NCBI GenBank assembly: GCA_048939015.1
Contig: JBHLPW010000056.1
Span: 1 to 30,377 of the forward strand
Direction: 5' to 3'
Source of the DNA: Promethearchaeota archaeon
GTDB taxonomy: Archaea; Asgardarchaeota; Lokiarchaeia; Sigyniarchaeales; SOKP01
DNA length: 30,377 nt
Shown here piece by piece: positions 1,053-27,362 of the stretch. The notes under the pieces were generated by a model. The model worked only from the letters and a program-made list of their open reading frames with translations. It did not search any database and was not told the DNA's origin. How positions within the stretch are numbered: the first letter of the stretch is position 1; every line of letters starts with the position of its first letter. Position numbers and translations under genes: made by a program.

Positions 1053-2843
1053 TTATTGTTTTTTACGTTTTTCTTGCTTTTCATATAGAATCTTAAAATA
1101 ATCATTTAGCTCATCAAGAGTTTCTTCCGTTTCATAAAGACTTGGTTTCATTATTTCGGTCTTCTTAAGGGTAAACTCATCTTCCAGTTTTTTATTTTTT
1201 AATTTTTTTTTTGTCATTTTTTTTCGATATTGATTTTTAACCTTTTGTAAGGATTCCTTTAAAGTATTTTTAGGGAAGTTCTTTTTTTTATTGTCAGGGA
1301 TTTCTGAATTCTCTTTATTTAAATTATCTAATCTCTCTAAAATAATATCATTATTGTGCTTTATTTCTGATATTTCAAGCCACTCCCTTGGTATCAGGGG
1401 AACGTTTAATAGAAATGGTCTTTTAATAGAATTTACTCGAGCAATACATTGTCCCTTCTCTAAAATGGATAGATAATCTTCATGTTCTCCATCAAGATTT
1501 AATAATTTACAGAGAAAATCTTTATCAATATGAGTCTTAAAACATACCAATACTCCACAATTCGCTAAAATTTCTTCACTTATATCGGGGTGAGTCGCTA
1601 ATGAGATTAAACATTCTCCTGTACCCCTTTGTAATAAAGCAATATCCTCCAAATAGGTAGTTAATTTGTTTTGTCGTGTTAGATCTTTAGGAGCAAAATA
1701 TTGAGTATCTTCTACAATCGTAATGTGTTTTATACCTTGAAAATTGAAAGCCCCTCGTGTGAGATTTTTATCCCAAAGATATTTCAATATCATATTAAGG
1801 AAGAACAATGCATCTTCTTTTTCTCCTCCAAGACGGATAATAGAACTAAGATCTATTAGAATATTCCTTTGGAAAAGGCTCTCTGTCTTGATTTTATGTT
1901 CAGTATCAAATAAGGCTTTTAATGACCCTAAAGAAAACCTTCTAATTCGATTTGTTATACTGATTAAGGTTTGACTTAACATCGGAATCTCATCTTTCTT
2001 ATTCTTCGCATATCCCTTACAATAGTCATAAAATCCTTGCCAACTCTGAAATTTCTTATTTTGACAAATTTTAGTCAATATTTCAACAAGCACCTTTTCC
2101 ATCTGTGGAGAGAATTCGGCGTTTTCGTCTAAGAACTTTCCACTCTTCAATATATCAAAAATCCTCTCTGCATGTACTTCTGGAAGAGAGTCTCCAGGAT
2201 TGAATATATTAATTGAAAAATTCTCTCCAGGTCTTATAATTATTAAATCTTCGATTTTCCGCTGTAAGAAGTGATATTCCCCTTTAAATTCAACTAGTAA
2301 GAATGGAATTTTATATTTCTTCGTGAAGTTCATTAAAAAATGTTGGATGAAATTACTCTTACCAGTGCCTGTGGCACCACATACAAACATATGCTTTTCA
2401 AGGTCTTCAAGTGATAGAGAGAATTTTCCTTTTTTATGCCCGTTTTCAACAATTGTACAAATTTTTATATTTCTCTTTCTTGCTTTTAAAAAAGAGGGTT
2501 TATCCAATTCTACAACGTCATCATCAGAGTGATAAACCGAATAGAAGAACAACACCGAAGAAATACATAACAATAAGAGAAAAACATTGCTAAATAATGA
2601 TTGATTATGAGAATTAGTTGCCTTTGTGAAATTCATAAGAAATGGAAGCAATATTAGAGCAAAAATTAAAATTGCTGTCCCTAATAAGAAAATAATGATA
2701 ATCTTAAGCTTATTAGCTGAGTTCTCTCTCTTTCGAGAGATAAAGAAAATTATATTTAAAATAATTAAAACTATGTTTAAACATAGATAGAAAGAAACAA
2801 ATTCAGAGGAATCCAGAACGCTTGACATATAATTCATAATCAT
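1053..2843 (-). CDS. Membrane-anchored HerA/FtsK/VirD4-CedB-like P-loop ATPase (DUF87-like)
   Basis: Three N-terminal TM helices; LEKHMFVCGATGTGKS Walker A; LLVEFKGEY; atypical Walker B HITIVEDTQ; QRGTGECLISLATHP; basic C-terminal tail. Confidence 0.8.
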   Translation of the reverse strand: MIMNYMSSVLDSSEFVSFYLCLNIVLIILNIIFFISRKRENSANKLKIIIIFLLGTAILIFALILLPFLMNFTKATNSHNQSLFSNVFLLLLCISSVLFFYSVYHSDDDVVELDKPSFLKARKRNIKICTIVENGHKKGKFSLSLEDLEKHMFVCGATGTGKSNFIQHFLMNFTKKYKIPFLLVEFKGEYHFLQRKIEDLIIIRPGENFSINIFNPGDSLPEVHAERIFDILKSGKFLDENAEFSPQMEKVLVEILTKICQNKKFQSWQGFYDYCKGYAKNKKDEIPMLSQTLISITNRIRRFSLGSLKALFDTEHKIKTESLFQRNILIDLSSIIRLGGEKEDALFFLNMILKYLWDKNLTRGAFNFQGIKHITIVEDTQYFAPKDLTRQNKLTTYLEDIALLQRGTGECLISLATHPDISEEILANCGVLVCFKTHIDKDFLCKLLNLDGEHEDYLSILEKGQCIARVNSIKRPFLLNVPLIPREWLEISEIKHNNDIILERLDNLNKENSEIPDNKKKNFPKNTLKESLQKVKNQYRKKMTKKKLKNKKLEDEFTLKKTEIMKPSLYETEETLDELNDYFKILYEKQEKRKKQ

Positions 2844-2914
2844 GTAAAAATTTTAAAAAGAACACCTTATTTCTTAATTTTTCTTTAAAAATTACACATA
2901 ACACAAAAAAAAAC

Positions 2915-4204
2915 CTATATTAAGTCAAGATTCTCCAATGATTTCTTACAGATCTCTGCTATTTTCTGTACATCTCGCATTATGATCTCATTTTTAAGTG
3001 CTATTCTTGCATACGCTCTACTAAGTATAAATATCATTCTAGTTAGAGGGAACCCTTCCATTTTCCTTTCTTTATTTTTTTCATTATTTATACTTTCCAT
3101 TTCATTCGTAAATTCTTTAATATATGCAATTGCTGGTTTAGAAAGCTTGGGATCATATGTTCTTTTAGAGTATATAATATATTTTCTTAAAAAATCTCTT
3201 TTGATGTTTTTCAAACTCTCTCTTGTTCCTTTAATGTCATTGATTTTCTTATTAGTACTAATCAAAACTAAGTCAAACTTGCTAAGAATCTTATTTTTAT
3301 GTTGAAACTTTAAATTATCATAAACAGACCTGCTTTTATGAGAGATGTCATCATACCACTTATTATCTCCTGTATTCGCTGCAGCAATTATTGAGCTTTT
3401 TCTCAAAATTTCATCAAATTCTTCATATAGTTTGGTTAGTCTATACGGCTTCATTTCTGTTAAATTATCAATTAATATCATACCGTTTGTGGCAAATTCA
3501 GTCAATCCAGCTTTCTCAATGTGTTTCCCCCCTTTTTTGTCTCGACTATTATACTGTACAAACCGTTCCTCTGATTTCTGAGAAAACTGTATCGTGTTAT
3601 TCGGAAAAAAGTTATTAAGGATCTTCAAAAATGAACTTTTACTTGTTTTTGAGCCTCCAACAATTAATAAACTAAGGTAGCACGAAATCTTATTCGTAAC
3701 AAGGTGAGGAACGATATTACATGCCAAAAGGAGGGTTCCTATCAATTTTATATCATCATTGATAAAGATATCATCCTGAAAAATATAATCCGCTAAAATG
3801 GATTGTATTGAAGGATTCAGAGCAAATAATTTTATTTCGGAAATATCTTGGCGAGTAATCTCGATATTCTCATTAATAATTTTGATGTCTTTTGCAACAA
3901 GGATCATATTCATTGTCTTGCCATTTTGTACGTTATTTATTTCCAGAGTTCCTGTTATTTGTATTTTATCTCCTAAACTAGGAAAACCGTTAGTAGATTC
4001 AGTTAAAATTACTTCTTTTTCATGATGAATGCCAAATTTCTTATGATCATCTTTAAGCCCTTGAACATGAACAGATTGGATGAATCCATAATTTTCATCT
4101 TGATATACTGGAGATAATTTTGTAACAACTCCTTCACAAACCACCATTTTATTCAGATACGTTGAGTTTAGTTTCTCCAATGGTACATAAGGTTCTGAGA
4201 CCAT
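2915..4204 (-). CDS. Degenerate, truncated MCM-family protein (OB fold + AAA+ domain), probably ATPase-dead
   Basis: MCM-like motifs in the expected order: LNKMVVCEGVVTKLSPV, GDKIQITGTL, LLIVGGSKTSKS, EKAGLTEFATNGMILIDN, SIIAAAN, ILSKFDLV, LRKYIIYSKRTYDPKLS, LSRAYARIALKNEIIMRDV. Confidence 0.8.
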   Translation of the reverse strand: MVSEPYVPLEKLNSTYLNKMVVCEGVVTKLSPVYQDENYGFIQSVHVQGLKDDHKKFGIHHEKEVILTESTNGFPSLGDKIQITGTLEINNVQNGKTMNMILVAKDIKIINENIEITRQDISEIKLFALNPSIQSILADYIFQDDIFINDDIKLIGTLLLACNIVPHLVTNKISCYLSLLIVGGSKTSKSSFLKILNNFFPNNTIQFSQKSEERFVQYNSRDKKGGKHIEKAGLTEFATNGMILIDNLTEMKPYRLTKLYEEFDEILRKSSIIAAANTGDNKWYDDISHKSRSVYDNLKFQHKNKILSKFDLVLISTNKKINDIKGTRESLKNIKRDFLRKYIIYSKRTYDPKLSKPAIAYIKEFTNEMESINNEKNKERKMEGFPLTRMIFILSRAYARIALKNEIIMRDVQKIAEICKKSLENLDLI

Positions 4205-4393
4205 GAATATACTTTACCTCAAAAATGAGAAAAAATAATAGTATGATAAATTGAAAATTAGTGATATATTAAATAGCTAGACACTCTTCAAGAATTCTAA
4301 AAATTTTTTTATAGGTTAAGGAGTAAACTAATTTTCTTGTTCTAGAAAAGCTTAGATCAAAATGAAATGAATAAAGATTTTTAAATATATAAA

Positions 4394-5426: not shown

Positions 5427-7751
5427 TTAATTTAGATATGGGAACTTAATAATCTGTGGCTCATGTTTGCCTTTACATAAGATAAAAGCGTGTCCTACTG
5501 GGAGTCGCTTCAATTGTTCTCTCTGTTCACTATTCAAGTAATCTTTAAGATACGCACATCCACTTCCTTCAATCAAGAAGAAAATCTTAGTGTTACAAAG
5601 ATCCACAAGTTCTTTCTTTATGTCTTTTGGGTGTTGTGTAGCGTATATTACTCCATATCGCCTTTTGCGACCACGATGCTGAATTTCACTAAGAAAGTGC
5701 AATATTCGTTTTTGGTAATCGGTGTTTGCTAAAAGTTTAGGCATTATCCGAGTGACTTCATCTAAAACAAATATTACTCCAATATCAGAGGTATCAATAT
5801 CAGAATCTCGCTTCATTTTATACTTATGAAATACTGCTAAAAAGTAAAGAGCGACAATTCGTTGCTGATCATCATCTAAATCAAAACAGTCTAGGACTGT
5901 AATTTTTCCTGGAACTAACATCTGTTCAATATCAATTGGCTCTGCATCCAGCCGATCAAATAAATCCAATGTAATTGAGAGTAGCGAACGAGTTATAGCA
6001 TCTCTCACGCTCGCATTTAAACGATAAGCGGGAAGAGTCATATATCTAAGAATCTCAGTATGCAATTCTGTAAATGTAAATGTTCTATTAGGATAATCAT
6101 AAATTATATCTTGAATGATACGTTGTAAAAGTGTGCTTGAGACGCTTGGAAGTTCATGAAGAAATAATAGTAAATGTTTAGGATCAATACTATTCAATGA
6201 TAAGCACCAATCAGTTTCATCGGTCAAATGAATAATCTCAATATTTTCAGATTCTACAGGATCGATGTCCCATTTAGCCATTAGTTTCATTGATTCTTCA
6301 ATTGAAGGGATGCATGGTAGATTAGAAAACTCTCCCTCAGCATCAAAAATGATAATAGCAGGGCAATTTGCCTGCGGAGCTGTTGAAAGCGTCATAAATC
6401 GAATTGCTGATGTTTTTCCTGTGCCTTGAGTACCACCCATAAAAATTCCTTGATAATAAAGCAGTGGATTAAAGTGGTACTTGTATTCTTGATCGATGTC
6501 ATGAAGCCAGCCAAATGGGATGCCATTTTGGGGTATTTTTTTGAATTCATAAAACTCCCATTCTCTCAATGGCGTAATCTTCCCTTGAATAATTGTTTGC
6601 GGACGAGGACTTCGGGGACCTTCTGGATGAAGCTCAACTATTGGATTCAGTTTTATAGCAAAAACCTTTTCATTAAGACTTTTTAGAACAATTGAAGCAT
6701 TTTCCTCATAACACCTAATAAGTTCAATAATGCAAATGATTCGAATTCCATCTTGTCGTTCAACAGCGACTAAGTCTCCATCTTTCACATATTCAGCCTT
6801 GTCTGCCCATAGATACCCTTCCATTTTATTCTCCTTATTATTTACTAGCTCCATAGGTTTTGATTTATCTGTATTAACCCAGCCTAAAGCATCAAAGGCT
6901 CTTACATTCTTTTCTACTTCACTAGACCCTTTAGATACTTTTTCTTCATCTAATGAAATTATTGAAGCTGCTGCAGTAACATCTCTAGAACTATTTAGTC
7001 CACTTTCATCTTGAGTATCAACCTTAAACTCTAAAGCATCCAAACCATTCTCTCTAATGAAATCTATAGCTGCTACCTTCAGTTTATCAGTAAAATCGTA
7101 TTCAATGATTTTATTTGGAAAGTAAATTAGTACTACCTTTTGACATTGCATTCCTGTATTTTCTTCCAAGATAATACCATAAATACAGGCCTGGATGAGA
7201 TCTCTATAATACTTAGACTCAGGATTGCTTGGATCTTCCCCTTCGAAAGGATAAGACTTGAATTCTCGTACAATTAAACGTTCGTCATCTGTTAATACCA
7301 TCTCATCAATACGAGCACTGATTTTTGCTCCTTCTATAACACCGATTTCCTCTTGTTCGAAGGATATAATTCCTCCAAATAGTTGTTTCTCTAGTTCTAT
7401 GGGAATCACAGACCAATTATTTTCTTTCGCGTAATTTTTAGCTAATTCAACAATCTGTTGGTATAAGATCTTCAGTAGTGTGTTAACATCCTTATAATAC
7501 ATATTTAGTTTCTTGTTATTTCGAACTTCAGCTAATATTTTATTGCGAACTTCACGAGTTCTCTGATTTAATATTGTATGACTCACTCTTGCATTAGCTC
7601 CTGTCTTTAAGACTTCCTTAAAAAATCGCGCCTTGATATGGTGTAAGAGATTTCCTCGTCGTGTACCTATTGATGAATATATTTTTTTTCCATATCCTTT
7701 ATCAAGGGTTCTGCTAACAGACTTAATATTATTTGATATTTCCTTTGTCAA
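5427..7751 (-). CDS. Fusion of a RecB/Cas4-like PD-(D/E)xK nuclease with a HerA-family ATPase
   Basis: N-terminal nuclease motifs RGNLLH, EKQL, ARIDEM, REFKS and QACIYG. These are followed by a HAS-barrel-like segment, GGTQGTGKT (Walker A), IFDAEGEF, VLDEV (Walker B) and GRKRRYGVIYATQHP. Confidence 0.85.
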   Translation of the reverse strand: MTKEISNNIKSVSRTLDKGYGKKIYSSIGTRRGNLLHHIKARFFKEVLKTGANARVSHTILNQRTREVRNKILAEVRNNKKLNMYYKDVNTLLKILYQQIVELAKNYAKENNWSVIPIELEKQLFGGIISFEQEEIGVIEGAKISARIDEMVLTDDERLIVREFKSYPFEGEDPSNPESKYYRDLIQACIYGIILEENTGMQCQKVVLIYFPNKIIEYDFTDKLKVAAIDFIRENGLDALEFKVDTQDESGLNSSRDVTAAASIISLDEEKVSKGSSEVEKNVRAFDALGWVNTDKSKPMELVNNKENKMEGYLWADKAEYVKDGDLVAVERQDGIRIICIIELIRCYEENASIVLKSLNEKVFAIKLNPIVELHPEGPRSPRPQTIIQGKITPLREWEFYEFKKIPQNGIPFGWLHDIDQEYKYHFNPLLYYQGIFMGGTQGTGKTSAIRFMTLSTAPQANCPAIIIFDAEGEFSNLPCIPSIEESMKLMAKWDIDPVESENIEIIHLTDETDWCLSLNSIDPKHLLLFLHELPSVSSTLLQRIIQDIIYDYPNRTFTFTELHTEILRYMTLPAYRLNASVRDAITRSLLSITLDLFDRLDAEPIDIEQMLVPGKITVLDCFDLDDDQQRIVALYFLAVFHKYKMKRDSDIDTSDIGVIFVLDEVTRIMPKLLANTDYQKRILHFLSEIQHRGRKRRYGVIYATQHPKDIKKELVDLCNTKIFFLIEGSGCAYLKDYLNSEQREQLKRLPVGHAFILCKGKHEPQIIKFPYLN

Positions 7752-7761
7752 CCTTTTTTTC

Positions 7762-7770
7762 TCACCTCCT
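7762..7770 (-). promoter_or_regulatory. Shine-Dalgarno sequence (AGGAGGTGA) for the nuclease-HerA gene
   Basis: Strong archaeal SD 10 nt upstream of TTG 7751, inside the 28-bp gap after the NYN gene stop. Confidence 0.7.
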
Positions 7771-7779
7771 TTTTGTAAT

Positions 7780-8355
7780 TTAAAATAACTCTAACTCTCC
7801 TGTTGTTTTTTTCATTCTATTTACCACATCAACAGTGGTTATATTTGACGAAGGTGACCTTCTATTTAAACAAAAAATATTTGAACCTATTTTTTCAATT
7901 TTTTCATAATTAATATTAGGACTCAAGCACACTTCGCTGTCAATTATCATGAATGTAACTCTTCTCTCTTCTAACCATTGATTACTTGGTAACTGACATA
8001 AATAATCTCTAAATTTATCATTAGATATGATAAAGCAAAAATCGTGTTTTAAAGCAAAACTAAGAATAAATTCGTCAGCTATTTTTGGAGCTTCAACAAT
8101 TTTACCTTCTTTAACAAGTACTTCAAATTCAACGGGTTTATCAATGTAATATCTGAGAGAAGGATCACAAATACAATGAATATTTTCTTCAGAAAAACCT
8201 AACTCCTTTGTCAAATAATGAAGTAAAGATATAATATCCGATAATAAAGGAACTTGATACTGATTGAACTGAGAATATGCTACGTTATTACAATCAATGT
8301 AAACATGGAGCTCTTTTAAAATTGGATAATCTTTAAAACAGTTTGATAAACACAT
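7780..8355 (-). CDS. NYN/PIN-fold ribonuclease, Zc3h12a (Regnase)-like
   Basis: Motifs VYIDCNNVAY, CICDPSL, ADEFIL and IISNDKFRDY carry the acidic residues typical of the Regnase-type PIN active site. Confidence 0.8.
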   Translation of the reverse strand: MCLSNCFKDYPILKELHVYIDCNNVAYSQFNQYQVPLLSDIISLLHYLTKELGFSEENIHCICDPSLRYYIDKPVEFEVLVKEGKIVEAPKIADEFILSFALKHDFCFIISNDKFRDYLCQLPSNQWLEERRVTFMIIDSEVCLSPNINYEKIEKIGSNIFCLNRRSPSSNITTVDVVNRMKKTTGELELF

Positions 8356-8525: not shown

Positions 8526-11500
8526 ATGGATATTACTAAAAAGACTATATATCCCGAAAATTTAGAAAAAGGTAATTATGAATTTAATATTCTGCGAATT
8601 CTGGAAGAAAATGAATATTGCGTATGGCAGGATTTTCTAGATGAACGACTAAACATGTCTCCTACCACAGTATCAAAATATACAAGAAAATTAATAGAAA
8701 AAGGATATATCAAAAAAGAAAAAAGAAAATACAAGATAACTACAGATGGATTGAACAGAATAGCTGATTTAGAATCAATTGGAGAAGAAAAAAGTTTTCC
8801 ACCTGATGATCTTGAACTTCTACCTGAAGAAAAAATTATATGGATGGTTAATGTTAATCCTTATTGTCAATGGCGTGACTTTATGAACGAAAGATTAGAA
8901 ATGAATAGATCTACTCTTTCAAAAACTCTCGCTCGTTTAATTAGAAATGATTTGTTAGAAAAAAAGATTGATTCAGAAATATCTCATTATCCCATTTATG
9001 TGAAGAAAAGAGAAGCTGTGAGAAAATATAGGGCGATATTAAATTCCAAAAATTTAGATCCTAAAACAAGACAATTAGAAAAACTCAAAATGGTACGAGA
9101 AATTAGCCATGATAATAAACAACTTTTTGAAGAATTCGATATACATGAATTTGATATCAAACATAGATTCAATAAATATAAACTTATATTTGATTACTTA
9201 ACTTATAGACAGATATTTCGTGATAATGAAAAGCATTACAACCTAACTTTACTTTTTCTCGCAATCAATCATCCAGATAATTATCCAAATTACATTAGTT
9301 TAAAAGACTTTTGTACTAATTATGATATTAAAAAGACAGAATTAGATTATTATATAGGAGAATTATTAGAGCCAAGTTATTCCTCAATAAAACTATTTTC
9401 ATTAAATATTAACAATGAAAAATCTTACTTTTTTCATGAAAAGGGTAAATTAGCAAAAATTTTAAAAGCTCTAATACAAGATTATTTGGATAAAAAATTT
9501 CAAAAAACTATGGAAAAGGAGTGGAGGAAATATGATTATGATATAAAAATTCCTTTATCCTATGACGAATTATTAGAGATCGTTTCTATCATTATAGATA
9601 AACATGCATTTTTGAAACAAGAATTACGTTCTTCATTATTAGTATTCTTACCAAGCTTCATCAATTACTTAGAATATAAAATTGAACAGAAATATGAAAA
9701 ACTTTCAAAAAAGAAATCATCTATTTCAAGAGAGTTTGAAATAATTGAATATTTAAAAACATCTATGGACCTTACTGAAATTGAACACCCTAAATTAAAG
9801 GAAGAAAGAAAACTCGAAATTTCAGAAGAAATAGATTACATAGATAAAAAAACATTAGATTCGCTGGAAAAATCCAAAATTAAAATTAATTCATTAATTA
9901 AGGAAAACCATTATACAGAAGCTTTAAAAGAAATTAATGAAAGTTTGCCAATATTTGAAAAGGTTGATGAAGAAATTCAATTTTTCGAGCTTAATAAATT
10001 ATCCAAAATCAATATGGAATATTATGAGCTAAGGTTATTTTTTTATATTAATAAAATGAAGTGTTTAGTTAAATTGAGGAATTTTGATGATCTCTTAGAA
10101 AATGCTATAATAACATATGATCTTGATTCAATCTCAAACGTAGTCATAGATTTGATTGAAATTGAGCAATATAAAATTGCAAATGACATATATGATAAAG
10201 CATTTGATCCTTATAATAAACTAAGTGGCGATGACCGAAATGAAGCAATTGGCGAATTTTGGTGGGGTATTCATAGTTATTTTCATAATAAAATTGTTGA
10301 CGAATTTAGAAATAAAACCTATGAAAATGCGCTGACCATTATCAACAAATATTTGAATTTTAGTCCCAATGATGAAGAAATGGTCGAATTAAAAATTAAA
10401 GCCTATTTTTATTTAAAGGAATATGAGAAAGCAATAGAAATTACTGATAATGCTATTAAAAAGTGGCCAAAAAGACCAGAACATATTAAATGGAAATTAA
10501 CAGAAGAGGAAAAAGAGGAACCTATATGGGCATTAATGCTAGACAAAGAAAAAGATAAAGACAAGATCGAAAGTATTTCATACGGTTATAAATTCTGTCA
10601 CTTAAAAGCTCGGATTTTACTAAATATGAAGAAGTATGATGAATCATTAGAAATATTAGAAAAAATAATCAAAGCGAATCCAAATATATCAGAATCTTAC
10701 TATCTGAAGAGTTTAATTGAATATGAATTAAATCATAGTGAGCAAGCGTTAGAATTACTTAATTTCGCAATAGATATTGATCCAAATGAAGATTTATACT
10801 ATGGGGTCAAAGCTGATTTCCTGTTTAATTTTAACAAATATTCAGACGCTTTAGAGGTTATCAATAAATCAATTGAACTAAATTCTAGAAAACCAATTTA
10901 TTATAATATAAAAGCTAAAATCCTACTCTTTATGAATAAACCAAACAACGCTTTAAAAGTTATTGATCATGCAATTCAAGAATTTCCAGAATTCTCTGGG
11001 TTTTATAAAACAAAGAGTCTTATATTATCCAATCAGGAAAAATCATTAATAGCTCTTGAAAAAGCTGAAGAGTTAGGGGATAAAATTAGTTATTATAATA
11101 AAGCTCAAACATTATATAACCTTGGAAGAAGCGATGAGGCTTTAAAAGCAATAAATATAGAACTAAATAAAAATTTTGATGATCCAATTGGCTTTGAACT
11201 GAAAGCCGCCATCCTAGCTGAATTAGGAAGATTTGATGAAGCATTTAATGCATATGAAAAAATTAACGAAATTAATGCAGATTATGCAAAAATAACCAAC
11301 ATTAAGTCTCATATCTATAACAAGATGGCTTATTATTTTGCGGAAGAAGGTAATCAAGAAGAAGCCGTAAAAGCGATAAAGAACGCAATTGAAATTTCGC
11401 CCGATTCAGCAGATTATTACGATTCTTATGGTGAGATTTTAATGATTTTTAAAGATTTTAAAAACGCGGTAGAAAAGTTCGAAAAAGCTAAAAAACTTCA

Positions 11501-11735
11501 TTTCACCCCAATTGAGACATTCATTAAACTTGGAAAATGTTTATTTGAACTAGGTAAATATGAAGAAGCCTTAGAAAATTTGAGAATTGGTAGGAATCGA
11601 GCGGTACATACTGTTAAAAGAGTAATGTCAACTGAAGAGGATAAACGTTTTATTGTAGATTTTCCACAGACCGAACTGATTCAAGAAGCAGAGAAATATA
11701 TTTTAGAAATAAAAAAAATTCAGGATAAAAAATAG
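8526..11735 (+). CDS. Tandem winged-HTH (MarR/ArsR-like) plus C-terminal TPR-repeat protein
   Basis: Two similar N-terminal units (NEYCVWQDFLDERLNMSPTTVSKYTRKLIEKG and NPYCQWRDFMNERLEMNRSTLSKTLARLIRND). The C-terminal half has many ~34-aa TPR-like repeats (e.g. ALELLNFAIDIDPNEDLYYGVKA). Confidence 0.85.
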   Translation: MDITKKTIYPENLEKGNYEFNILRILEENEYCVWQDFLDERLNMSPTTVSKYTRKLIEKGYIKKEKRKYKITTDGLNRIADLESIGEEKSFPPDDLELLPEEKIIWMVNVNPYCQWRDFMNERLEMNRSTLSKTLARLIRNDLLEKKIDSEISHYPIYVKKREAVRKYRAILNSKNLDPKTRQLEKLKMVREISHDNKQLFEEFDIHEFDIKHRFNKYKLIFDYLTYRQIFRDNEKHYNLTLLFLAINHPDNYPNYISLKDFCTNYDIKKTELDYYIGELLEPSYSSIKLFSLNINNEKSYFFHEKGKLAKILKALIQDYLDKKFQKTMEKEWRKYDYDIKIPLSYDELLEIVSIIIDKHAFLKQELRSSLLVFLPSFINYLEYKIEQKYEKLSKKKSSISREFEIIEYLKTSMDLTEIEHPKLKEERKLEISEEIDYIDKKTLDSLEKSKIKINSLIKENHYTEALKEINESLPIFEKVDEEIQFFELNKLSKINMEYYELRLFFYINKMKCLVKLRNFDDLLENAIITYDLDSISNVVIDLIEIEQYKIANDIYDKAFDPYNKLSGDDRNEAIGEFWWGIHSYFHNKIVDEFRNKTYENALTIINKYLNFSPNDEEMVELKIKAYFYLKEYEKAIEITDNAIKKWPKRPEHIKWKLTEEEKEEPIWALMLDKEKDKDKIESISYGYKFCHLKARILLNMKKYDESLEILEKIIKANPNISESYYLKSLIEYELNHSEQALELLNFAIDIDPNEDLYYGVKADFLFNFNKYSDALEVINKSIELNSRKPIYYNIKAKILLFMNKPNNALKVIDHAIQEFPEFSGFYKTKSLILSNQEKSLIALEKAEELGDKISYYNKAQTLYNLGRSDEALKAINIELNKNFDDPIGFELKAAILAELGRFDEAFNAYEKINEINADYAKITNIKSHIYNKMAYYFAEEGNQEEAVKAIKNAIEISPDSADYYDSYGEILMIFKDFKNAVEKFEKAKKLHFTPIETFIKLGKCLFELGKYEEALENLRIGRNRAVHTVKRVMSTEEDKRFIVDFPQTELIQEAEKYILEIKKIQDKK

Positions 11736-12832: not shown

Positions 12833-14806
12833 TTAATCCATAAAAGGATAATAATTAATTGTCTGTATTAAGTAATGTTCTCCAGTAGCACCATTAATGA
12901 CTAATCCTAACCGATTCTCTAATTGAGTAAGTATTTGCCGTTCGAAAGAATCTTCAGAAAAAAGAGCGTTATTGGGATAATCTTCTCTAAAAATAATCTT
13001 AATACTTGGTTGAGAAACCACATCATCAAACAAACGAGCGGGAGATTGGTCTGCTATAACGAATCCAACACCGCGACTTCGATACTCTTTCAGCAATTCT
13101 GAGAATATTTTTGCCATTTGCTCTTTCATGATAAAGTCCGCGTCATCGCTATTTGTCGTAATCGGCTTCTCTAAAATGGCATGAGCTTCATCAATGACAA
13201 TAAGATATTTTAAATCTTCCGCTTCACTATCTTTCGTAAGTGTTCTTAGGAGTTGAAAAATTACGTTTACAATGAGCATTTTCACAAATTTGCTACACAT
13301 AGATAAATCAAGAAATATATTTTCACCATTTAACCAACTATCGACCCATTCTGGCAGGTCTTCGTTTATTTTCAGCACTTTTTGAATTTTTTCCTCATCA
13401 AAAACATTCATTCGATTTCTGAACACTTGTAATAAATTAGCTTGTTCTTCTGGACCGTATGGATTATTCTTAATATAGGTTTCTACACCCTTAAGTAGAC
13501 CAATGAAGTACTCAGGTAATTCATTTTTTAATTCTAAAAAACCCACTTCAGTACGATAGATAATTTTTTCGAAGACATTTTTCAAGCCTAGTGACGCACA
13601 TATATAAGTAGCAGTCTCTTCTAATCGCTTCTTTAAGGTTTCTCTTTTGGTTTTAGTGAAGTATGGAATTTGAAAATCCATATCAGAATATTTTATTTTC
13701 TTGAAATTACGATGAAAAATCTCTTGAGACTCTTTCGCAACATTTAGTACTAAAATCCCTGCTTTTTTTGATTTTTGAGCAAGTTCTTGGATGAACCGAG
13801 TAAGAAAGTATGTTTTCCCGCTTCCAGATTTTCCAAATATAGCCATATCTTGAGGAAGTTTATTGATTGGAACAAAAGTCTCATGTTTAGTTATCACCCC
13901 ATTTTTGATATGATAACCAACTGTGATCGCTTTTTTCTTAAATTTATTATGAATATCAATATATCTAACATTCTCATTTTTCAAAATCGGAAGTCGAGGC
14001 AAAGGGAGATCTTCTGGAAAATCGAAATTCACATCCTCCTGCACAAAATTTCTCAAAGACTCACTCCCATCATTAAATACACTCCCTTCCAATATATCTA
14101 AATTTGACACTCCTGAGGGATTAATAACTTTCGCACGATACCCCATTTCATTCTCAATTTCCATAGATAAAAACTGAATTTCTCCTTCAAGCTTAGCTTT
14201 CTCTTCCACATTAGAGTTATCCAAATCTGATTTAATAAAGACTCTGATATTAAATAACTTCGATTGCTCTTGAGACATCTCCGAACGAGGTTCTCTCTGC
14301 CATAAAATAATTAATTGGGTCGTGTGGGCTGTTTTATGGTAAAACGCGCTAATATATCGCTCAATAATATTAATTTTGTTTTTAATATACCCCATTGGTA
14401 AGACAATCTCAAACAATTGGTCTTTATTCAATATTTCTTGACTATTCTCTTCAATTGGCTTCGCTTCAATGACTCCATCCAATCCAACGAATTTAAACCT
14501 TAGATTTGAAAGCCAAGCATGACCTGATCTAAGAGCATCTATTTTTGATGCTTCTGTTGTGAAAAAGACAACCTCAATATTATCATTCGCCGTTAATTCA
14601 AGACCATATACCCCAGGAGGATTGTTTCCAAATGGATCATAAAGGAAAGATCTAATATCCTCATGCTTCTGATAAAAAGGTACTGCTGACTCAGGTACCT
14701 CTTGAGGTTCGAATAACTCTGGTGCTTGGGTTATATGAATACGAGTCTGCCAAAATAAGATACCATGGTTATCTTCCACTTTATCCCCCTTCACTATACC
14801 CTTCAT
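12833..14806 (-). CDS. HerA/VirB4-like P-loop ATPase with an uncharacterised N-terminal domain (probable true start GTG 14779)
   Basis: DMAIFGKSGSGKT (Walker A), LIVIDEAH (Walker B), EYRSRGVGFVIADQSP. The GTG at 14779 sits 1 nt after the upstream stop and is preceded by GGGGGA. Confidence 0.85.
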   Translation of the reverse strand: MKGIVKGDKVEDNHGILFWQTRIHITQAPELFEPQEVPESAVPFYQKHEDIRSFLYDPFGNNPPGVYGLELTANDNIEVVFFTTEASKIDALRSGHAWLSNLRFKFVGLDGVIEAKPIEENSQEILNKDQLFEIVLPMGYIKNKINIIERYISAFYHKTAHTTQLIILWQREPRSEMSQEQSKLFNIRVFIKSDLDNSNVEEKAKLEGEIQFLSMEIENEMGYRAKVINPSGVSNLDILEGSVFNDGSESLRNFVQEDVNFDFPEDLPLPRLPILKNENVRYIDIHNKFKKKAITVGYHIKNGVITKHETFVPINKLPQDMAIFGKSGSGKTYFLTRFIQELAQKSKKAGILVLNVAKESQEIFHRNFKKIKYSDMDFQIPYFTKTKRETLKKRLEETATYICASLGLKNVFEKIIYRTEVGFLELKNELPEYFIGLLKGVETYIKNNPYGPEEQANLLQVFRNRMNVFDEEKIQKVLKINEDLPEWVDSWLNGENIFLDLSMCSKFVKMLIVNVIFQLLRTLTKDSEAEDLKYLIVIDEAHAILEKPITTNSDDADFIMKEQMAKIFSELLKEYRSRGVGFVIADQSPARLFDDVVSQPSIKIIFREDYPNNALFSEDSFERQILTQLENRLGLVINGATGEHYLIQTINYYPFMD

Positions 14807-14990
14807 CTACATAGTCATAATCCTTCCCTTCCTCACTCGAAGGCTCATCAATTCCGTCGAAATCCCTTCCATCACTTCCAGGTTCCTCGCCTAATCCTTC
14901 AAACTCCTCATGTCCTCCTTCTGAAGGCTCATCGATTCCTTGGTAGTCATTTGATTCTTCCCCAGAACATTTGTCAATACCATCATAATC
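14781..14990 (-). repeat. Five 14-aa acidic C-terminal repeats (consensus D[YF]xGIDE)
   Basis: DYDGIDKCSGEESN / DYQGIDEPSEGGHE / EFEGLGEEPGSDGR / DFDGIDEPSSEEGK / DYDYVDEGYSEGG*. Confidence 0.8.
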
Positions 14991-16832
14991 CTTTGCTTGT
15001 TTCGCAACATTTTTTGGATCGTATACACTTCGATATTCTGGTTCATTAAGATGCCACTCATCGACCAACACTCTTCCCCCTTCTGTTTTATCTTTCGGAG
15101 TTTTTTGTGGAGCATCTCCGGGGATCAATGTTTTGACTTCTCCTGGAGTATGTTCAGGTGCTAACCCGCTAGTTTCAAATGAGTGGTTATTTATATTTGC
15201 TTCAGAGGGAACATCCTCTTGTTTTTCAAGAGGCTCTTGACCCTCCCCTGTTAATGATTCCTCTTGAATCTCATCAGACTCTTCTTCTGTCGATAATGCA
15301 GGGTTTTCTTCTGATATATCCTTCCCTTCTTCCTGTGCTGACTCCTTCTCATTTTCTTCAGAAGATTTTTTCTTCTCTTCTTCCTCTTCATGCTCTTGTA
15401 TAGGGTGTTTTTCAGGGCCTTCAGGTTTTGTATCTGATGTTTGCTTCTCATCCTGCTTTTCAGCATTCCGTTCGTCAATATCTCTTGCAACATCATCAAG
15501 GTTCTTATCCTTGAGATACTCCTTTGCTTCCGTATAATTTTTAACTCCATACTCGCCTAACATCTCCTTAATTTTATTATTTATTATCTTCGCATCCATC
15601 CCATATTTATGATCAATTTCATTCTTTTGTAAATTTTGGATATCTTCTAAAAATTCTCGCTTATCTTGAATTTCTGATTTACCCTCATATTTCTCGGTTT
15701 GATTACTCAACCTCTCATTTATGTCCTTTACCACATCGTCAAGATTTTTTTCCTTTAGATATTCTTTTGCTTCTGTATAATTCTTAACACCATGTTCTCC
15801 AAACATTTCACGTATTCTTTTATTTACTGTAGTTCTATTCATACCATATTTTTGTGCAAGCTCTTTATTGGACAGATTTTGAATATCTTTAAGAAATTCT
15901 TGTTTATTATCGATCTCCTTTTTCACTCCAGATTTGTCAGGTTGATTGCGCATCCTCTCATTGATATCCTTAAGAACCTCATCAAGGTTTTTGCCTTCAA
16001 GATATTTCTTAGCTTGGGAAAAATTATTTACTCCTCGATGCCCCAGCATTTCTTTAATTCTTCTATTCATACATTTCCCATCTATATCATGTTTTTCGTT
16101 TAAATCCTTTTTTTTCATCTCTTGGATATCATTGAGAAATTCTCTTTTATCGGTGATTTCTCTCCTTCCGTTTGCCCGTGAATTGAACTGCCTTTTGCGA
16201 TATTTATATTCTTGCCATTTATTTGTTACCCCTTTACTTACATTATCTTGATATTTTTGATCTTTCCATTTATCTGATAATGATTGACTCATTTTGTCTA
16301 GAGTTTCTGGATTTCTTGCTATCTCTTGATTTACTTCAGTCATCTTATTAAGCCATTCTGGATCTTTAGCTCTCGCTTGTCTTTCTTTAATCTGCTTTTC
16401 TTGATATTCAAGATCATATTGCCATTTTTCTAATCCTCTTTCACTTAAGTATTCTTTTAACCTCTCGCTTAATCTACCTCCTCGACCCCCCTCTCTCATA
16501 TTATATCCTTTATCTGGATTCATTGTATCATATTTAATTATATTATCATCTTCTTTTCTATCCAATTCCTCTTGATTCTTCGCGACATCTTCCGTTTTTA
16601 ATTTAAAGTTCTCTTCTCCGTGCTTAATAACAGCATTTTCTATATAACGACGTTTTTCTCCTCTTTTTTGTTTGGCAAAACCCTCTTGAATCTCTTCTTT
16701 CCAACGTTCTTCTATAGGAATCTTATCATCTGCCCAACGACTTGAAACCGTCTGTCCTATATAATTCTTTCCATTTTTTATATTGGTAGCTCGATAAATA
16801 TAACCATAGGGCTTTTCTTGATTTTTAACCAT
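14781..16832 (-). CDS. GIY-YIG endonuclease with 17-aa helical repeats, three 81-aa HTH-like repeats and an acidic repetitive tail
   Basis: YGYIYRATNIKNGKNYIGQT...EERW...LDRKE...GYNMREGG forms a GIY-YIG module. The repeats are visible in both protein and DNA. Confidence 0.85.
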   Translation of the reverse strand: MVKNQEKPYGYIYRATNIKNGKNYIGQTVSSRWADDKIPIEERWKEEIQEGFAKQKRGEKRRYIENAVIKHGEENFKLKTEDVAKNQEELDRKEDDNIIKYDTMNPDKGYNMREGGRGGRLSERLKEYLSERGLEKWQYDLEYQEKQIKERQARAKDPEWLNKMTEVNQEIARNPETLDKMSQSLSDKWKDQKYQDNVSKGVTNKWQEYKYRKRQFNSRANGRREITDKREFLNDIQEMKKKDLNEKHDIDGKCMNRRIKEMLGHRGVNNFSQAKKYLEGKNLDEVLKDINERMRNQPDKSGVKKEIDNKQEFLKDIQNLSNKELAQKYGMNRTTVNKRIREMFGEHGVKNYTEAKEYLKEKNLDDVVKDINERLSNQTEKYEGKSEIQDKREFLEDIQNLQKNEIDHKYGMDAKIINNKIKEMLGEYGVKNYTEAKEYLKDKNLDDVARDIDERNAEKQDEKQTSDTKPEGPEKHPIQEHEEEEEKKKSSEENEKESAQEEGKDISEENPALSTEEESDEIQEESLTGEGQEPLEKQEDVPSEANINNHSFETSGLAPEHTPGEVKTLIPGDAPQKTPKDKTEGGRVLVDEWHLNEPEYRSVYDPKNVAKQAKDYDGIDKCSGEESNDYQGIDEPSEGGHEEFEGLGEEPGSDGRDFDGIDEPSSEEGKDYDYVDEGYSEGG
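15468..16160 (-). repeat. Three tandem 243-bp (81-aa) coding repeats
   Basis: Units start at 16160 (EITDKREFL), 15917 (EIDNKQEFL) and 15674 (EIQDKREFL), an exact 243-nt period. Shared motifs include GVKNYTEAKEYL and KNLDDV. Confidence 0.9.
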
Positions 16833-24496: not shown

Positions 24497-25888
24497 TTGT
24501 CAGACAAAGAAGCTGATACTTATATTTTCAAAAGAAATAGTGAAAGAGAAGTAGAAAAGTTTGTAGGAATTGATGCTTTTGCCACATCAAAAATTGATGG
24601 GATTGGGGGTGAATATAAGCAAAATTTTAAGGATTTTATAGTTAAAGAAATAGAAAGTAATGGAAAAATACTTAACATAAGAGAAGATTACAAATCTCAA
24701 CCTTTTTCTAAAGAATTAAAGGATGGATATACAAAATTTAATTTAATAAAAATTAATCGAGATACATTTAAAGCTTTAAGAGAAATAAGTAAAGCCTTGA
24801 AAATACCTTATGAAATGTTAAATTATTCTGGGTTGAAAGACAAACATTCCATATCAGTTCAAAAAGTCTCAATAAAAGGAGATCATATTGATAATTTAAA
24901 AAAATTAAATCTAAAGGATATTTTTATTAGAAATATCTATCCTGCAAAGAAACCTGTTAAATTAGGAAGCCATTGGGGAAATAACTTTACAGTCTTAATT
25001 AGAAATATAGAAAATCGTAGGGATTTGAAAAATAGATTAGAACAAATTTTCAATTATTTAAGGAAAAAAGGATTTCCTAATTATTTTGGACTTCAAAGAT
25101 TCGGAAGTTATAGACCCAATTCTCATATTGTTGGACGATATATTTTAGAAGGTAATTTTAAGAAAGCCTTTGAAGAATTTGTATCAACTACTTATACCTC
25201 TGAGTCTAGTGAATCAAAAATCGCAAGGAGAGAATTTAGAAATACACAAGATTTTGTGAAAGCTTTAGAAAATTTTCCAAAAAACCTAAAATATGAAAGA
25301 AACATGCTTCATTATCTAATTGAAACACCAAAAGATTACATGGGTTGTATTAACACATTACCTTCTGATTTGAAAAAGTTATTGATTAGTTCCTTTCAAT
25401 CTTATCTTTTCAATAAGATGCTTTCATTAAGAGTAAAGAAAGGCTTTCCCTTATTTACGCCGATAAAAGGTGATGTGATTTCCATATTAGATGACTATAA
25501 TGGAAATCTCACATATGTAAATTATATATATGGGAGCTTTTATGATAAATTCTTAAAAAAAGCATTAAATTTAAATCGAGCTGCCATTATTATGCCTATT
25601 ATTGGGAATACAACCGATTTAGAGTCATTCCCCTTGATGAAGACTCTATTTGAAGACACTATTAAGATAGAAAAAGTTGATAAAAATATTCTCTATAACA
25701 AATCAAATACAGAACTCGAGATGAAAGGTTCTATTAGAGCTATATCTGCTAAACCTACTGGTTTAAAATTATTAGAATTTAACGATGATGAACTTAATCC
25801 AGGAAATATAAAAATTCAATTTGAATTTTCTTTACAAAAAGGAAGCTATGCTACGATGCTAATTAGAGAACTTATTAAACCAGTTTAA
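24497..25888 (+). CDS. truD: tRNA pseudouridine(13) synthase TruD
   Basis: DFIVKE, GLKDKHSISVQ, GNNF, GFPNYFGLQRFG, FQSYLFN, FSLQKGSYATMLIRE. Confidence 0.96.
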   Translation: MSDKEADTYIFKRNSEREVEKFVGIDAFATSKIDGIGGEYKQNFKDFIVKEIESNGKILNIREDYKSQPFSKELKDGYTKFNLIKINRDTFKALREISKALKIPYEMLNYSGLKDKHSISVQKVSIKGDHIDNLKKLNLKDIFIRNIYPAKKPVKLGSHWGNNFTVLIRNIENRRDLKNRLEQIFNYLRKKGFPNYFGLQRFGSYRPNSHIVGRYILEGNFKKAFEEFVSTTYTSESSESKIARREFRNTQDFVKALENFPKNLKYERNMLHYLIETPKDYMGCINTLPSDLKKLLISSFQSYLFNKMLSLRVKKGFPLFTPIKGDVISILDDYNGNLTYVNYIYGSFYDKFLKKALNLNRAAIIMPIIGNTTDLESFPLMKTLFEDTIKIEKVDKNILYNKSNTELEMKGSIRAISAKPTGLKLLEFNDDELNPGNIKIQFEFSLQKGSYATMLIRELIKPV

Positions 25889-27362
25889 GTTCTGATGATA
25901 TTACAGTTTCAATACCAAAAATATCAATTACCTTTATTAGAATATTGTAATTCCCTGGTTTATCATAATGGTAATACTTTGATTTTAAAGCTAATTTTCT
26001 ATCTTTTGGAGTTCTAAAAGAAAACCACTTAGCCTTAAAAATATTATTTTGGGGGTAATAATCAACAGCCCAATAATCAATCCAATCAGAAAAAGATTTA
26101 ATATCTCCTTTAACTTTTTCTGAAATTAAATCAATAAAAGGTAATTGATAATCGATCAATTCTACATTAATCCTATTATTTTGTTTATGGATCTTCACGT
26201 GTAAATTGGGGGATTCATTGATTTTATAACCTTTCTGATCTTGAACCTCCTTCTTCAAAAGGTTATAGGATATTGTATCTAATTTATCCATTTTTTCAAT
26301 TCCTAAGATTTTAAAAGATTGAGGGGTTTTATTGTATTTTTTTTTCCAATCTATAATATCATTACTTTTATCTAGGTTAAGTATTCTTTTCCTTACTATA
26401 TGAATCGCGTGTTTATTTGAATCACATCCAATCCATCGTCTTCCAAGCTTTTCTGCTACAGTTAATGTAGTACCTGAACCACAAAAGAAATCTGCTACAA
26501 GATCATTGCTGTTTGTTGACGCCAGAATAATTCTTTTTAATAAACGTTCTGGTTTTTGTGTAGAAAACCCTTGATATTCTGAAGTATTAGCTCTAATATA
26601 GGGAATATCACTCCAAACATCTCGAGGGAAAATTCCTTCAGTTTCTACATAGACTTTCCTAGAAAGTTTCTTTCCATTATGGCTTCCTCCCCTATAATAA
26701 AATACACCTTTATCATCCTTTTTTAAAGCATTCTTAACTCTATCAGAAAATTCTTGGTATATCCTTGGATCATCTCGAAATACGTAATCATCAGTTTTTG
26801 AGTAAAATAGGATAGTATCATAAGATCTAATAAAAAAACGTCGAGTTTTTACTGAAGCAGCAGGATAAGCCCAAATTATTTCATTTCTGAAATTTTCATA
26901 TCCAAAAATTTCATCCATAATGACTTTGATATAATGAGAAATATGCCAATCGAGATGTATAAATATAACCCCGCTATCTGCTAATAGTAGCTTCATTAAA
27001 ATTAGGCGTTCACGCATAAAATCTAAATATGAATTTAAACCTTCATTCCATTTATCATTATAGGCAATTTCATCTATGAAATTACCATTTTCTCCTATTT
27101 GAACTTTAAGGTTGAAATTTCCTCCTGTACCAAAAGGGGGATCAATATATATGAGAGAAATTTTGCTTTTAAACTTGGTAATCAATGATTTCATTACTGT
27201 TTTATTATCTCCCCAAATTAGTAGATTCTGCCACTTTTCGTCAGGTTTAGAATCCATACCAATAGATGGATATATATCGAGAACATGAAAAGGTTTAGTT
27301 TCATATGGTTTTGAAATAATATCCTCTATTTCCAACTTGCCTTTCCATTTCAATTCAACCAT
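25875..27362 (-). CDS. Site-specific DNA amino-methyltransferase (beta class, type III Mod-like), apparently orphan
   Basis: NLLIWGDN, IYIDPPF (motif IV) before DFFCGSGTT (motif I), FRNEIIW, TQKPERLLKRII. Confidence 0.92.
   Translation of the reverse strand: MVELKWKGKLEIEDIISKPYETKPFHVLDIYPSIGMDSKPDEKWQNLLIWGDNKTVMKSLITKFKSKISLIYIDPPFGTGGNFNLKVQIGENGNFIDEIAYNDKWNEGLNSYLDFMRERLILMKLLLADSGVIFIHLDWHISHYIKVIMDEIFGYENFRNEIIWAYPAASVKTRRFFIRSYDTILFYSKTDDYVFRDDPRIYQEFSDRVKNALKKDDKGVFYYRGGSHNGKKLSRKVYVETEGIFPRDVWSDIPYIRANTSEYQGFSTQKPERLLKRIILASTNSNDLVADFFCGSGTTLTVAEKLGRRWIGCDSNKHAIHIVRKRILNLDKSNDIIDWKKKYNKTPQSFKILGIEKMDKLDTISYNLLKKEVQDQKGYKINESPNLHVKIHKQNNRINVELIDYQLPFIDLISEKVKGDIKSFSDWIDYWAVDYYPQNNIFKAKWFSFRTPKDRKLALKSKYYHYDKPGNYNILIKVIDIFGIETVISSELKLV

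Follow-up and report, generated by a model that had tools for sequence, protein, structure and literature searches.

AAA+ proteins bind ATP-Mg through the Lys-Ser/Thr pair of the P-loop and the Asp of Walker B; the Walker B Glu activates water, and an Arg finger contributed by the adjoining subunit makes the site complete. MCM proteins form an AAA+ clade with a helix-2 insert and a pre-sensor-1 β-hairpin (ps1-β hairpin), the latter belonging to the apparatus for translocation on DNA. Few paralogues of MCM that are catalytically dead have been described (MCM2 of Methanopyrus kandleri and the eukaryotic MCMDC2/mei-MCM). The structure of the M. kandleri protein (mkaMCM2; PDB 3F8T) was reportedly published by Bae et al. 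in 2009. The gene described here, mini-MCM, lies on the minus strand at positions 2915–4204 of a 30,377-nucleotide stretch of DNA from a Promethearchaeota archaeon (assembly GCA_048939015.1, contig JBHLPW010000056.1; this whole stretch is called the window) and encodes a 429-aa protein (P0001) that, judging from its sequence, is very probably a selected, non-helicase MCM derivative of Asgard-MCM origin.

mkaMCM2 is an archaeal homologue of MCM that is inactive in its natural form and shows natural internal deletions (PMC2933578). In MCMDC2 and Drosophila mei-MCM, Walker A and Walker B are not conserved, and these proteins have been proposed to act as non-ATPase modulators of active-MCM complexes (PMC5070785). 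The ps1-β hairpin is described in one published account as functionally conserved from archaea to yeast (PMC4455780). A survey of haloarchaea found outlier MCMs that were either motif-intact or N-terminal-only fragments, nothing like the mini-MCM family (PMC3972481), and a 2025 survey of the Asgard replisome, in which MCM is mostly single-copy with recent duplications, does not describe the family (PMC12680538); a search of the literature likewise found no description of it.

The mini-MCM open reading frame (ORF) begins with ATG, ends with TAG and is intact over all 429 codons, as had been stated in a preliminary description made from the DNA letters, whose quoted protein strings are all present; an open frame of 429 codons in DNA of 30% GC is no chance ORF. 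Four independent lines of analysis identify P0001 as a homologue of MCM: Pfam, sequence search of the Protein Data Bank (PDB), an AlphaFold2 (AF2) model with structure comparison, and an ESM Atlas model. Pfam matches are to PF00493 (MCM P-loop; 1.3e-15, 57.6 bits, gathering cut-off 23.3) and PF17855 (MCM_lid; 5.4e-08, 33.7 bits, cut-off 27.4), and the top phmmer match among PDB sequences is SsoMCM (3f9v, 4.8e-19). The AF2 model, built from a 107-sequence alignment, reached a predicted local distance difference test score (pLDDT) of 92 and a predicted template modelling score (pTM) of 0.91; the alignment of 19 family members gave pLDDT 56 in the ATPase core, and the larger one was used instead. 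Structure searches with this model return MCM: the first Foldseek match is 8x7u_C (E 5.6e-28, TMq 0.79), and VIA-align superimposes model residues 2–426 on 98–595 of 8x7u_A (Z 30.8, 414 residues aligned). The alignment-free ESM Atlas model gives a template modelling (TM) score of 0.83 to archaeal MCMs. The MCM_OB hidden Markov model scores 18.1 bits, under its cut-off of 24.8, and the MCM-type OB fold ahead of the AAA+ core is found structurally, with model strands 20–109 lying on the MCM OB subdomain. The replicative MCM helicase profile NF040949 of NCBIfam scores 97.3 bits, far under its cut-off of 940. In the language-model features of the ESM Atlas, the nearest clusters include MCM-domain proteins of short length (~407 aa) that carry a viral label (Uroviricota), as well as MCMDC2-like clusters of eukaryotes (score 0.92); both are leads only.

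The anatomy of mini-MCM was compared across 19 family members and 86 canonical MCMs, including the 707-aa MCM of the same genome (107-sequence alignment A2), and the resulting features are as follows.

2915..4204, minus strand: mini-MCM gene, 429 codons plus TAG stop (ORF call; Pfam MCM and MCM_lid; MCM fold, Z 30.8)
3869..4204, minus strand: OB fold (residues 1–112, equivalent to MCM subdomain C) with no A domain before it; model strands 20–109 align from residue 98 of 8x7u_A
4106..4111, minus strand: P32/V33 junction, from which Zn-binding subdomain B has been lost; an alignment gap in all family members
3905..3943, minus strand: N-terminal β-hairpin loop (residues 88–100), shortened by ~6–8 residues relative to canonical MCMs; mean conservation 0.51
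3635..3658, minus strand: Walker A, G-G-S-K-T-S-K-S (residues 183–190), from the family alignment
3509..3559, minus strand: helix-2 insert β-hairpin (residues 216–232), kept, with the motif S-R-Y-K-K-G-G; model strands 218–221 and 228–231
3464..3475, minus strand: Walker B, L-I-D-N (residues 244–247), catalytic Glu replaced by Asn; D246 and N247 in 19/19
3407..3412, minus strand: site of the ps1-β hairpin deletion, between E265 and I266; a family-wide gap of 14 alignment columns
3374..3376, minus strand: codon of the sensor-1 position, N277; Asn in the window copy, His in 17/19 family members
3272..3283, minus strand: Arg-finger motif S-K-F-D (residues 308–311; canonical S-R-F-D), Lys for Arg; K309 in 18/19, F310 and D311 in 19/19
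3200..3244, minus strand: linker between core and lid (residues 321–335), hypervariable, indel-rich in family alignment A1; conservation 0.43
2918..3199, minus strand: AAA+ lid (residues 336–429) and protein end; Pfam MCM_lid 5.4e-08
3038..3040, minus strand: invariant R389 (19/19), about four residues (one helical turn) past the canonical sensor-2 Arg position

P0001 thus consists of an OB fold, an AAA+ core and a lid only, and the truncations named in the preliminary description all hold. The protein starts at the OB fold without an A domain (N-terminal extension of 0 residues, against about 97–101 in full-length MCMs), it ends without a winged helix (C-terminal extension of 0 residues, against about 90), and in every family member the gap at P32/V33 faces ~50 canonical residues that include the Cys4 motif of the Zn-binding insert. 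The ps1-β hairpin is missing from the alignment and also from the model, in which helix 253–267 leads directly to strand 271–278. The helix-2 insert is well conserved (K223 in 19/19, S220 in 18/19 and R221 in 17/19; region score 0.76). A basic isoelectric point was considered as a sign of new DNA binding and rejected, the equivalent region of the host MCM being equally basic.

The ATP site is altered in a constant way. The readings of Walker B as I-D-N and of the Arg finger as S-K-F-D, both given in the preliminary description, extend to the family (D-N in 19/19, Lys in 18/19); its label 'systematically disarmed' goes too far for Walker A, where the Lys-Ser/Thr pair is invariant (G183, S185 and K189 in 19/19; position 190 Ser or Thr, S190 in the window copy). 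The fourth Walker A position, 186, is Gly in 16 of the 19 members, and the family consensus G-x-S-G-T-Y-K-[TS] fits the MCM pattern G-x-x-G-x-x-K-S. A substitute for the catalytic Glu near Walker B was sought and rejected, since neither position 249 nor position 250 is conserved and the vicinity has no further acidic residue that is invariant. Walker B D-N also occurs in P0025, a 401-aa relative, and in four full-length MCMs (the full-length DN proteins); the canonical sensor-2 Arg position is retained in both.

The family comprises ~25 protein clusters of 420–440 aa at 41–55% identity (5.8 billion clustered proteins and 1.84 billion representatives searched), and it is set off by a sharp drop in score, from ~280 bits for its members to ~68 bits for canonical MCMs. 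Members with a named source belong to metagenome-assembled genomes (MAGs) of Thor-, Odin- and Promethearchaeota. No fused or longer forms were found in the search, only weak eukaryote-type MCM2 matches. G183, S185, K189, D246, N247 and R389 (19/19) and K309 (18/19) are among the most conserved positions of the family, and mean conservation is highest in the AAA core (0.74), lower in the OB fold (0.64) and lowest in the linker between core and lid (0.43). Nei-Gojobori ratios of non-synonymous to synonymous substitution (dN/dS, ω) are 0.23–0.40 for pairs with unsaturated dS (0.46–0.9), the lowest values (0.23–0.30) being those of the AAA core. Because D246, N247, K189 and R389 are invariant and K309 nearly so, the ATP pocket is altered yet under selection, and strong selection on an altered pocket points to nucleotide binding without hydrolysis, as opposed to function simply being lost.

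A functionless MCM copy, once captured and now drifting towards loss, would account for the many missing domains, for the copy at locus L013, which lacks residues 1–168 and is inverted relative to the window arrangement, and for the close pair L009/L015, in which ω is ~0.9 on ~30 substitutions. In that pair the C-terminal half of mini-MCM was compared (184 codons, L009 against L015 and L010; dS 0.08, dN ~ dS), and the substitutions are scattered over the AAA core and lid; the ratio could reflect relaxed or diversifying selection, or small-sample noise. These two exceptions apart, the ratios speak against neutral decay. More than 15 full-length intact copies of the same length persist at 41–55% identity, residues of the active-site region are invariant, the AAA core is the best conserved part, and an upstream element travels with the gene (see below). 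A functionless relic is therefore very improbable and appears already largely refuted by the pattern of conservation; mini-MCM is, on the sequence evidence, a repurposed helicase and not a decaying gene. The earlier view of a non-catalytic MCM paralogue in an accessory island is borne out by the invariant disarming substitutions, these ratios, the intact copies, the MCM matches of the structure searches and the rarity of the gene among Asgard genomes.

What such a protein would do can be read from the parts that were kept and lost. With the P-loop Lys-Ser/Thr and the Walker B Asp intact, mini-MCM is predicted to keep ATP-Mg binding; useful ATP hydrolysis would be lost because there is neither a catalytic Glu nor an Arg finger, and translocation would be lost because the ps1-β hairpin is gone. 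Both the cis face of the ATP site (P-loop, D-N) and its trans face (K309, R389) are conserved, which argues for self-assembly: subunits would most likely pair by way of their OB fold and AAA+ interfaces, giving a ring or oligomer that ATP stabilises. The oligomer may grip DNA with its OB folds and with the helix-2 insert, which is conserved and basic, and would then be a static clamp, roadblock or switch, not a motor. The chances that this explanation as a whole is right, that mini-MCM is an MCM-derived oligomer that binds ATP but neither hydrolyses it nor translocates, are about even.

A different outcome would follow if D-N and the Lys finger sufficed for slow hydrolysis, so that mini-MCM were a still-active, atypical helicase or ATPase of an integrated element, serving as replication initiator or helicase of a small element. 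Truncated MCMs without the usual N-terminus do occur on mobile elements; one from a Bacillus cereus prophage is an MCM-like helicase that is active (PMC2715239). Mini-MCM has kept the P-loop Lys and the Walker B Asp, and the short viral clusters of the ESM Atlas point the same way, as a lead only. The catalytic Glu is nevertheless replaced in every member with no invariant acidic neighbour to stand in for it, the Arg finger is lost and the ps1-β hairpin deleted. No integrase, primase or Rep gene was seen near mini-MCM in the window or in the context loci examined, and searches of viral and plasmid collections brought no relatives: none of the mini family, P0025 or the full-length DN protein P0038 in IMG/VR, and no tblastn match among INPHARED phages or PLSDB plasmids, collections in all of which Asgard elements are poorly represented. 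The match of P0001 to a DNA-helicase family of PHROGs (9.3e-27) reflects general MCM similarity. Activity as an element-borne helicase is accordingly quite improbable.

The retained OB fold and AAA+ oligomerisation interfaces also bear on the idea that mini-MCM does not assemble with itself and instead inserts into, or caps, an active MCM ring of host or invader and stalls it in a dominant-negative manner. This was the leading idea of the preliminary description, which also named a decoy, a sensor or a scaffold as possible roles. AAA+ rings are classically poisoned by a subunit that does not hydrolyse ATP, mini-MCM descends from a host-type Asgard MCM, and the N- and C-terminal domains of the full-length DN sisters are very like those of the host MCM, which fits co-assembly at an earlier stage. 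Identity between mini-MCM and the host MCM is now only about 25%, however, the A, Zn-binding and winged-helix parts have been lost, and both faces of the ATP site are invariant, as expected for self-assembly and unneeded for one-sided capping. A poison subunit or cap is for these reasons judged unlikely, and the self-assembling, ATP-bound oligomer remains the preferred reading.

The origin of the family can be followed in trees. In a 107-row tree the family joins P0025 first and then P0038, a 687-aa full-length MCM, adjoining the host MCM. In a 42-row tree under LG+C20+F+G4, support (ultrafast bootstrap, UFBoot/Shimodaira-Hasegawa-like approximate likelihood ratio test, SH-aLRT) is 100/100 at each of three nodes: the mini family, the family with P0025, and both with the full-length DN group. 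A quick search of the 42-row set places the combined clade nested among Asgard cellular MCMs (SH-aLRT 96). A compositional or long-branch artefact was considered and rejected, since the clade held under the LG+C20 mixture and, with support of 99–100, after removal of the catalytic-motif columns. These results indicate that the mini family is derived from an Asgard cellular MCM.

The full-length DN group comprises P0038, P0176, P0177 and P0178, Asgard MCM paralogues of 682–695 aa; P0038 and its three relatives are 67–76% identical, and the next-best matches of P0038 are named Asgard MCMs at ~42% identity against ~27% for other archaea. These proteins keep the A domain, the Cys4 Zn motif, the ps1-β hairpin and the winged helix in near host-type form, but their Walker B is already D-N, their finger residue Lys and their sensor-1 residue Gln. 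A stretch of ~11 residues ahead of Walker A, present in the mini family, is deleted in them, and the two groups are therefore best taken as sister lines and not as ancestor and descendant. P0025 branches between them: its P-loop is near-canonical (G-E-P-G-T-S-K-S), its Walker B is D-N and its ps1-β hairpin is deleted, while the Arg of its finger motif is shifted one residue along and that of sensor 2 is in the canonical place. Because the full-length sister group already carries D-N and Lys, the catalytic site was disarmed in a full-length Asgard MCM paralogue before domains were lost. The full-length DN MCMs were found in none of the 400 Asgard species genomes, that of the window included, and are apparently undescribed; their sequences make them candidate dead subunits that could enter complexes of the host MCM.

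Mini-MCM itself is rare. Of the 400 Asgard species genomes, 2 carry it, and the other 53 genomes of the same genus have no copy; a second search of the phylum, from another centre, gave the same 400 genomes. The window genome has one canonical MCM, of 707 aa, on another contig (G000:C30, L001:892-3015). A third PF00493 match in this genome proved to be a MoxR AAA_3 ATPase and not an MCM, and the matches of intermediate score in two other genomes (G083 and G089) come from canonical MCMs of the ordinary kind. Mini-MCM is located within the first ~17 kb of its contig, a variable island that precedes housekeeping genes (thermosome, TruD, an AspRS-type synthetase), and its surroundings were studied in the window and in eight short metagenome or MAG loci.

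This distribution bears on the possibility that mini-MCM regulates the host replisome as one of its core factors, restraining or assisting the cellular MCM in the way of MCM-BP or MCMDC2 in eukaryotes. The shared ancestry with the host MCM and the precedent of inactive MCM paralogues as modulators (PMC5070785) favour such a role, but a gene so sparsely distributed, carried in a variable island at a contig end and without an adjoining gene for MCM, GINS or Orc in any locus seen, is an improbable component of the core replisome.

The gene appears instead to travel alone with its own control region, the features of which are these.

4243..4283, minus strand: conserved upstream element with TATA-like boxes, aligned across five loci
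4216..4220, minus strand: GAGGT, a Shine-Dalgarno-like motif ~12 nt before the ATG, read directly; function inferred
2905..2913, minus strand: run of nine T from 2 nt past the stop codon, archaeal terminator-like, read directly

The upstream element, ~40 nt long, is present in all five loci that have upstream sequence. Between L004 and L012 the upstream region is 87% identical over 107 nt, while the proteins are only 63% identical. A degenerate pattern of the element has two matches in the 4.86-Mb genome, one of them at the mini-MCM locus (reversed control, one match). The element is probably the gene's own promoter or operator, and the T-run after the stop codon suggests that mini-MCM is monocistronic; the gene would then travel together with this control region.

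The gene directly downstream (1053-2843, minus strand) encodes a 596-aa HerA/FtsK-like ATPase (weak CedD match, 6.9e-13; PADLOC mad8/HerA) and has its own TATA-like and Shine-Dalgarno-like signals after the mini-MCM T-run. It recurs only in L013, where a homologue with 81% amino acid identity (L013:1-2745) adjoins the mini-MCM copy in a rearranged order, an arrangement that indicates a rearrangement hotspot. The first ~17 kb of the contig hold three HerA-like ATPases, one fused to a Cas4-like nuclease, together with an HNH protein, a NYN RNase, a protein with a winged helix-turn-helix (wHTH) and tetratricopeptide repeats (TPR) and a homing-endonuclease-like ORF; the HerA-like neighbours give PADLOC mad8/HerA matches. 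The NYN (Zc3h12a-like) RNase gene is followed by that of the 774-aa Cas4-like nuclease-HerA fusion (5427-8355, minus strand), a fragment of which recurs in L015 (64% amino acid identity over 89 residues). A 1069-aa protein (8526-11735, plus strand) has an N-terminal MarR/Lrs14-type wHTH and a long C-terminal TPR array. At 12833-16832 (minus strand), a wHTH-containing protein of 683 aa that resembles homing endonucleases (PHROGs homing endonuclease, 3.2e-14) overlaps a HerA-like ATPase of 657 aa (PADLOC mad8, 1.3e-15) at the start of the latter, and the pair is possibly another two-gene system. A 495-aa N6/N4 DNA methyltransferase (25875-27362, minus strand) stands among the housekeeping genes (TruD, class II aminoacyl-tRNA synthetase), and no restriction partner for it was seen in the ORF list of the window.

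In other loci the neighbours include a STAND/BrxC-like NTPase (L011), an AriA/AbiLi/OLD-class ATPase (L012; 4.4e-22) and, in L013, two TIR proteins (one ThsB-like, 1.6e-17), an HNH-like protein and a DUF4238 protein. Because mini-MCM is a solo cassette with its own promoter-like element, is very patchy in distribution and usually has defence-type neighbours, an anti-element role is suggested: the predicted oligomer would most likely interfere with MCM-dependent replication of invading elements or arrest replication on infection. Clamp and anti-element role together are offered tentatively, as a possibility well below an even chance. The more specific proposal of a self-contained effector of immunity or conflict, fashioned out of the replicative helicase of the cell itself, an ATP-locked, non-translocating ring or cap that blocks the MCM-dependent replication of invaders or arrests host replication on infection, is speculative and rather doubtful. 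If it were true, the progression from a dead MCM of full length to the 401-aa intermediate and on to mini-MCM would be a stepwise exaptation of a replicative helicase, into a conflict system and in the closest archaeal relatives of eukaryotes.

Several points, beyond the truncated L013 copy and the L009/L015 ratio, weigh against the account of mini-MCM as an ATP-bound, element-directed oligomer. ATP binding, oligomeric state and DNA binding are all deduced from sequence and model; the alignment behind the AF2 model consists mostly of canonical MCMs, so that the model confirms the fold and cannot show departures from it. The replacement of Gly186 by Lys in the window copy (non-Gly in 3 of the 19 members) may weaken nucleotide binding. 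The defence role is guilt by association in about four of seven informative loci, most context contigs are shorter than 10 kb, and the neighbours in L004 are a Ras/Roc GTPase and an FMN reductase, not defence genes. No conserved partner gene emerged from all-against-all BLAST of flanking ORFs or from tblastx of the 1.2-kb flanks, PADLOC-DB 2.0 returned no family for P0001 at E<=0.01, and P0001 has no recognisable effector domain.

Against the few catalytically dead MCMs already described, three aspects of mini-MCM are new: a minimal architecture of OB fold, AAA+ core and lid with an altered ATP pocket under strong selection, a traceable path out of an Asgard cellular MCM in which catalysis was lost before domains, and the status of an accessory, island-borne solo cassette, unlike a core replisome partner. 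If its target is the replication of mobile elements or the host MCM, mini-MCM would represent a new way to turn replication machinery into a device of control or defence, and a simple, tractable protein for the study of an ATP-locked MCM ring. The full-length dead sisters are relevant to the question whether Asgard archaea were where heteromeric MCM assemblies originated.

Canonical archaeal MCMs (SsoMCM, 3f9v/6mii; Asgard-type, 8x7u/8x7t; the 707-aa host MCM) have the same OB/AAA+/lid fold as mini-MCM and share with it the helix-2 insert, the P-loop Lys and the Walker B Asp. They differ in having the A domain, the Zn subdomain, the ps1-β hairpin and the winged helix, all four of which mini-MCM lacks, and in their Walker B D-E and Arg finger, where mini-MCM has D-N, Lys and, in most members, a sensor-1 His; canonical MCM is universal, whereas mini-MCM is accessory. 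Among the inactive proteins, mkaMCM2 resembles the mini-MCM model at the level of fold (3F8T; VIA-align Z 28.3, root-mean-square deviation 3.5, 358 residues aligned, 18% identity), with no sequence match to P0001 by phmmer at E<=1. It aligns from residue 100, and so has an N-terminal region that mini-MCM is without, and its Walker A is not conserved (PMC2933578), in contrast to the invariant Lys-Ser/Thr of mini-MCM; the two presumably arose independently in different lineages. MCMDC2 and mei-MCM are eukaryotic, meiosis-specific and carry the MCMDC2_N domain, which Pfam (PF26063) did not detect in P0001. The parallel with MCMDC2 drawn in the preliminary description holds as a concept and fails for ancestry and domain content, and the likeness is probably convergent because the mini family arose inside the Asgard MCMs. 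The closest relatives are the full-length DN MCMs, the sister group (100/100), which have D-N and the Lys finger in common with mini-MCM and retain the domains that it has lost.

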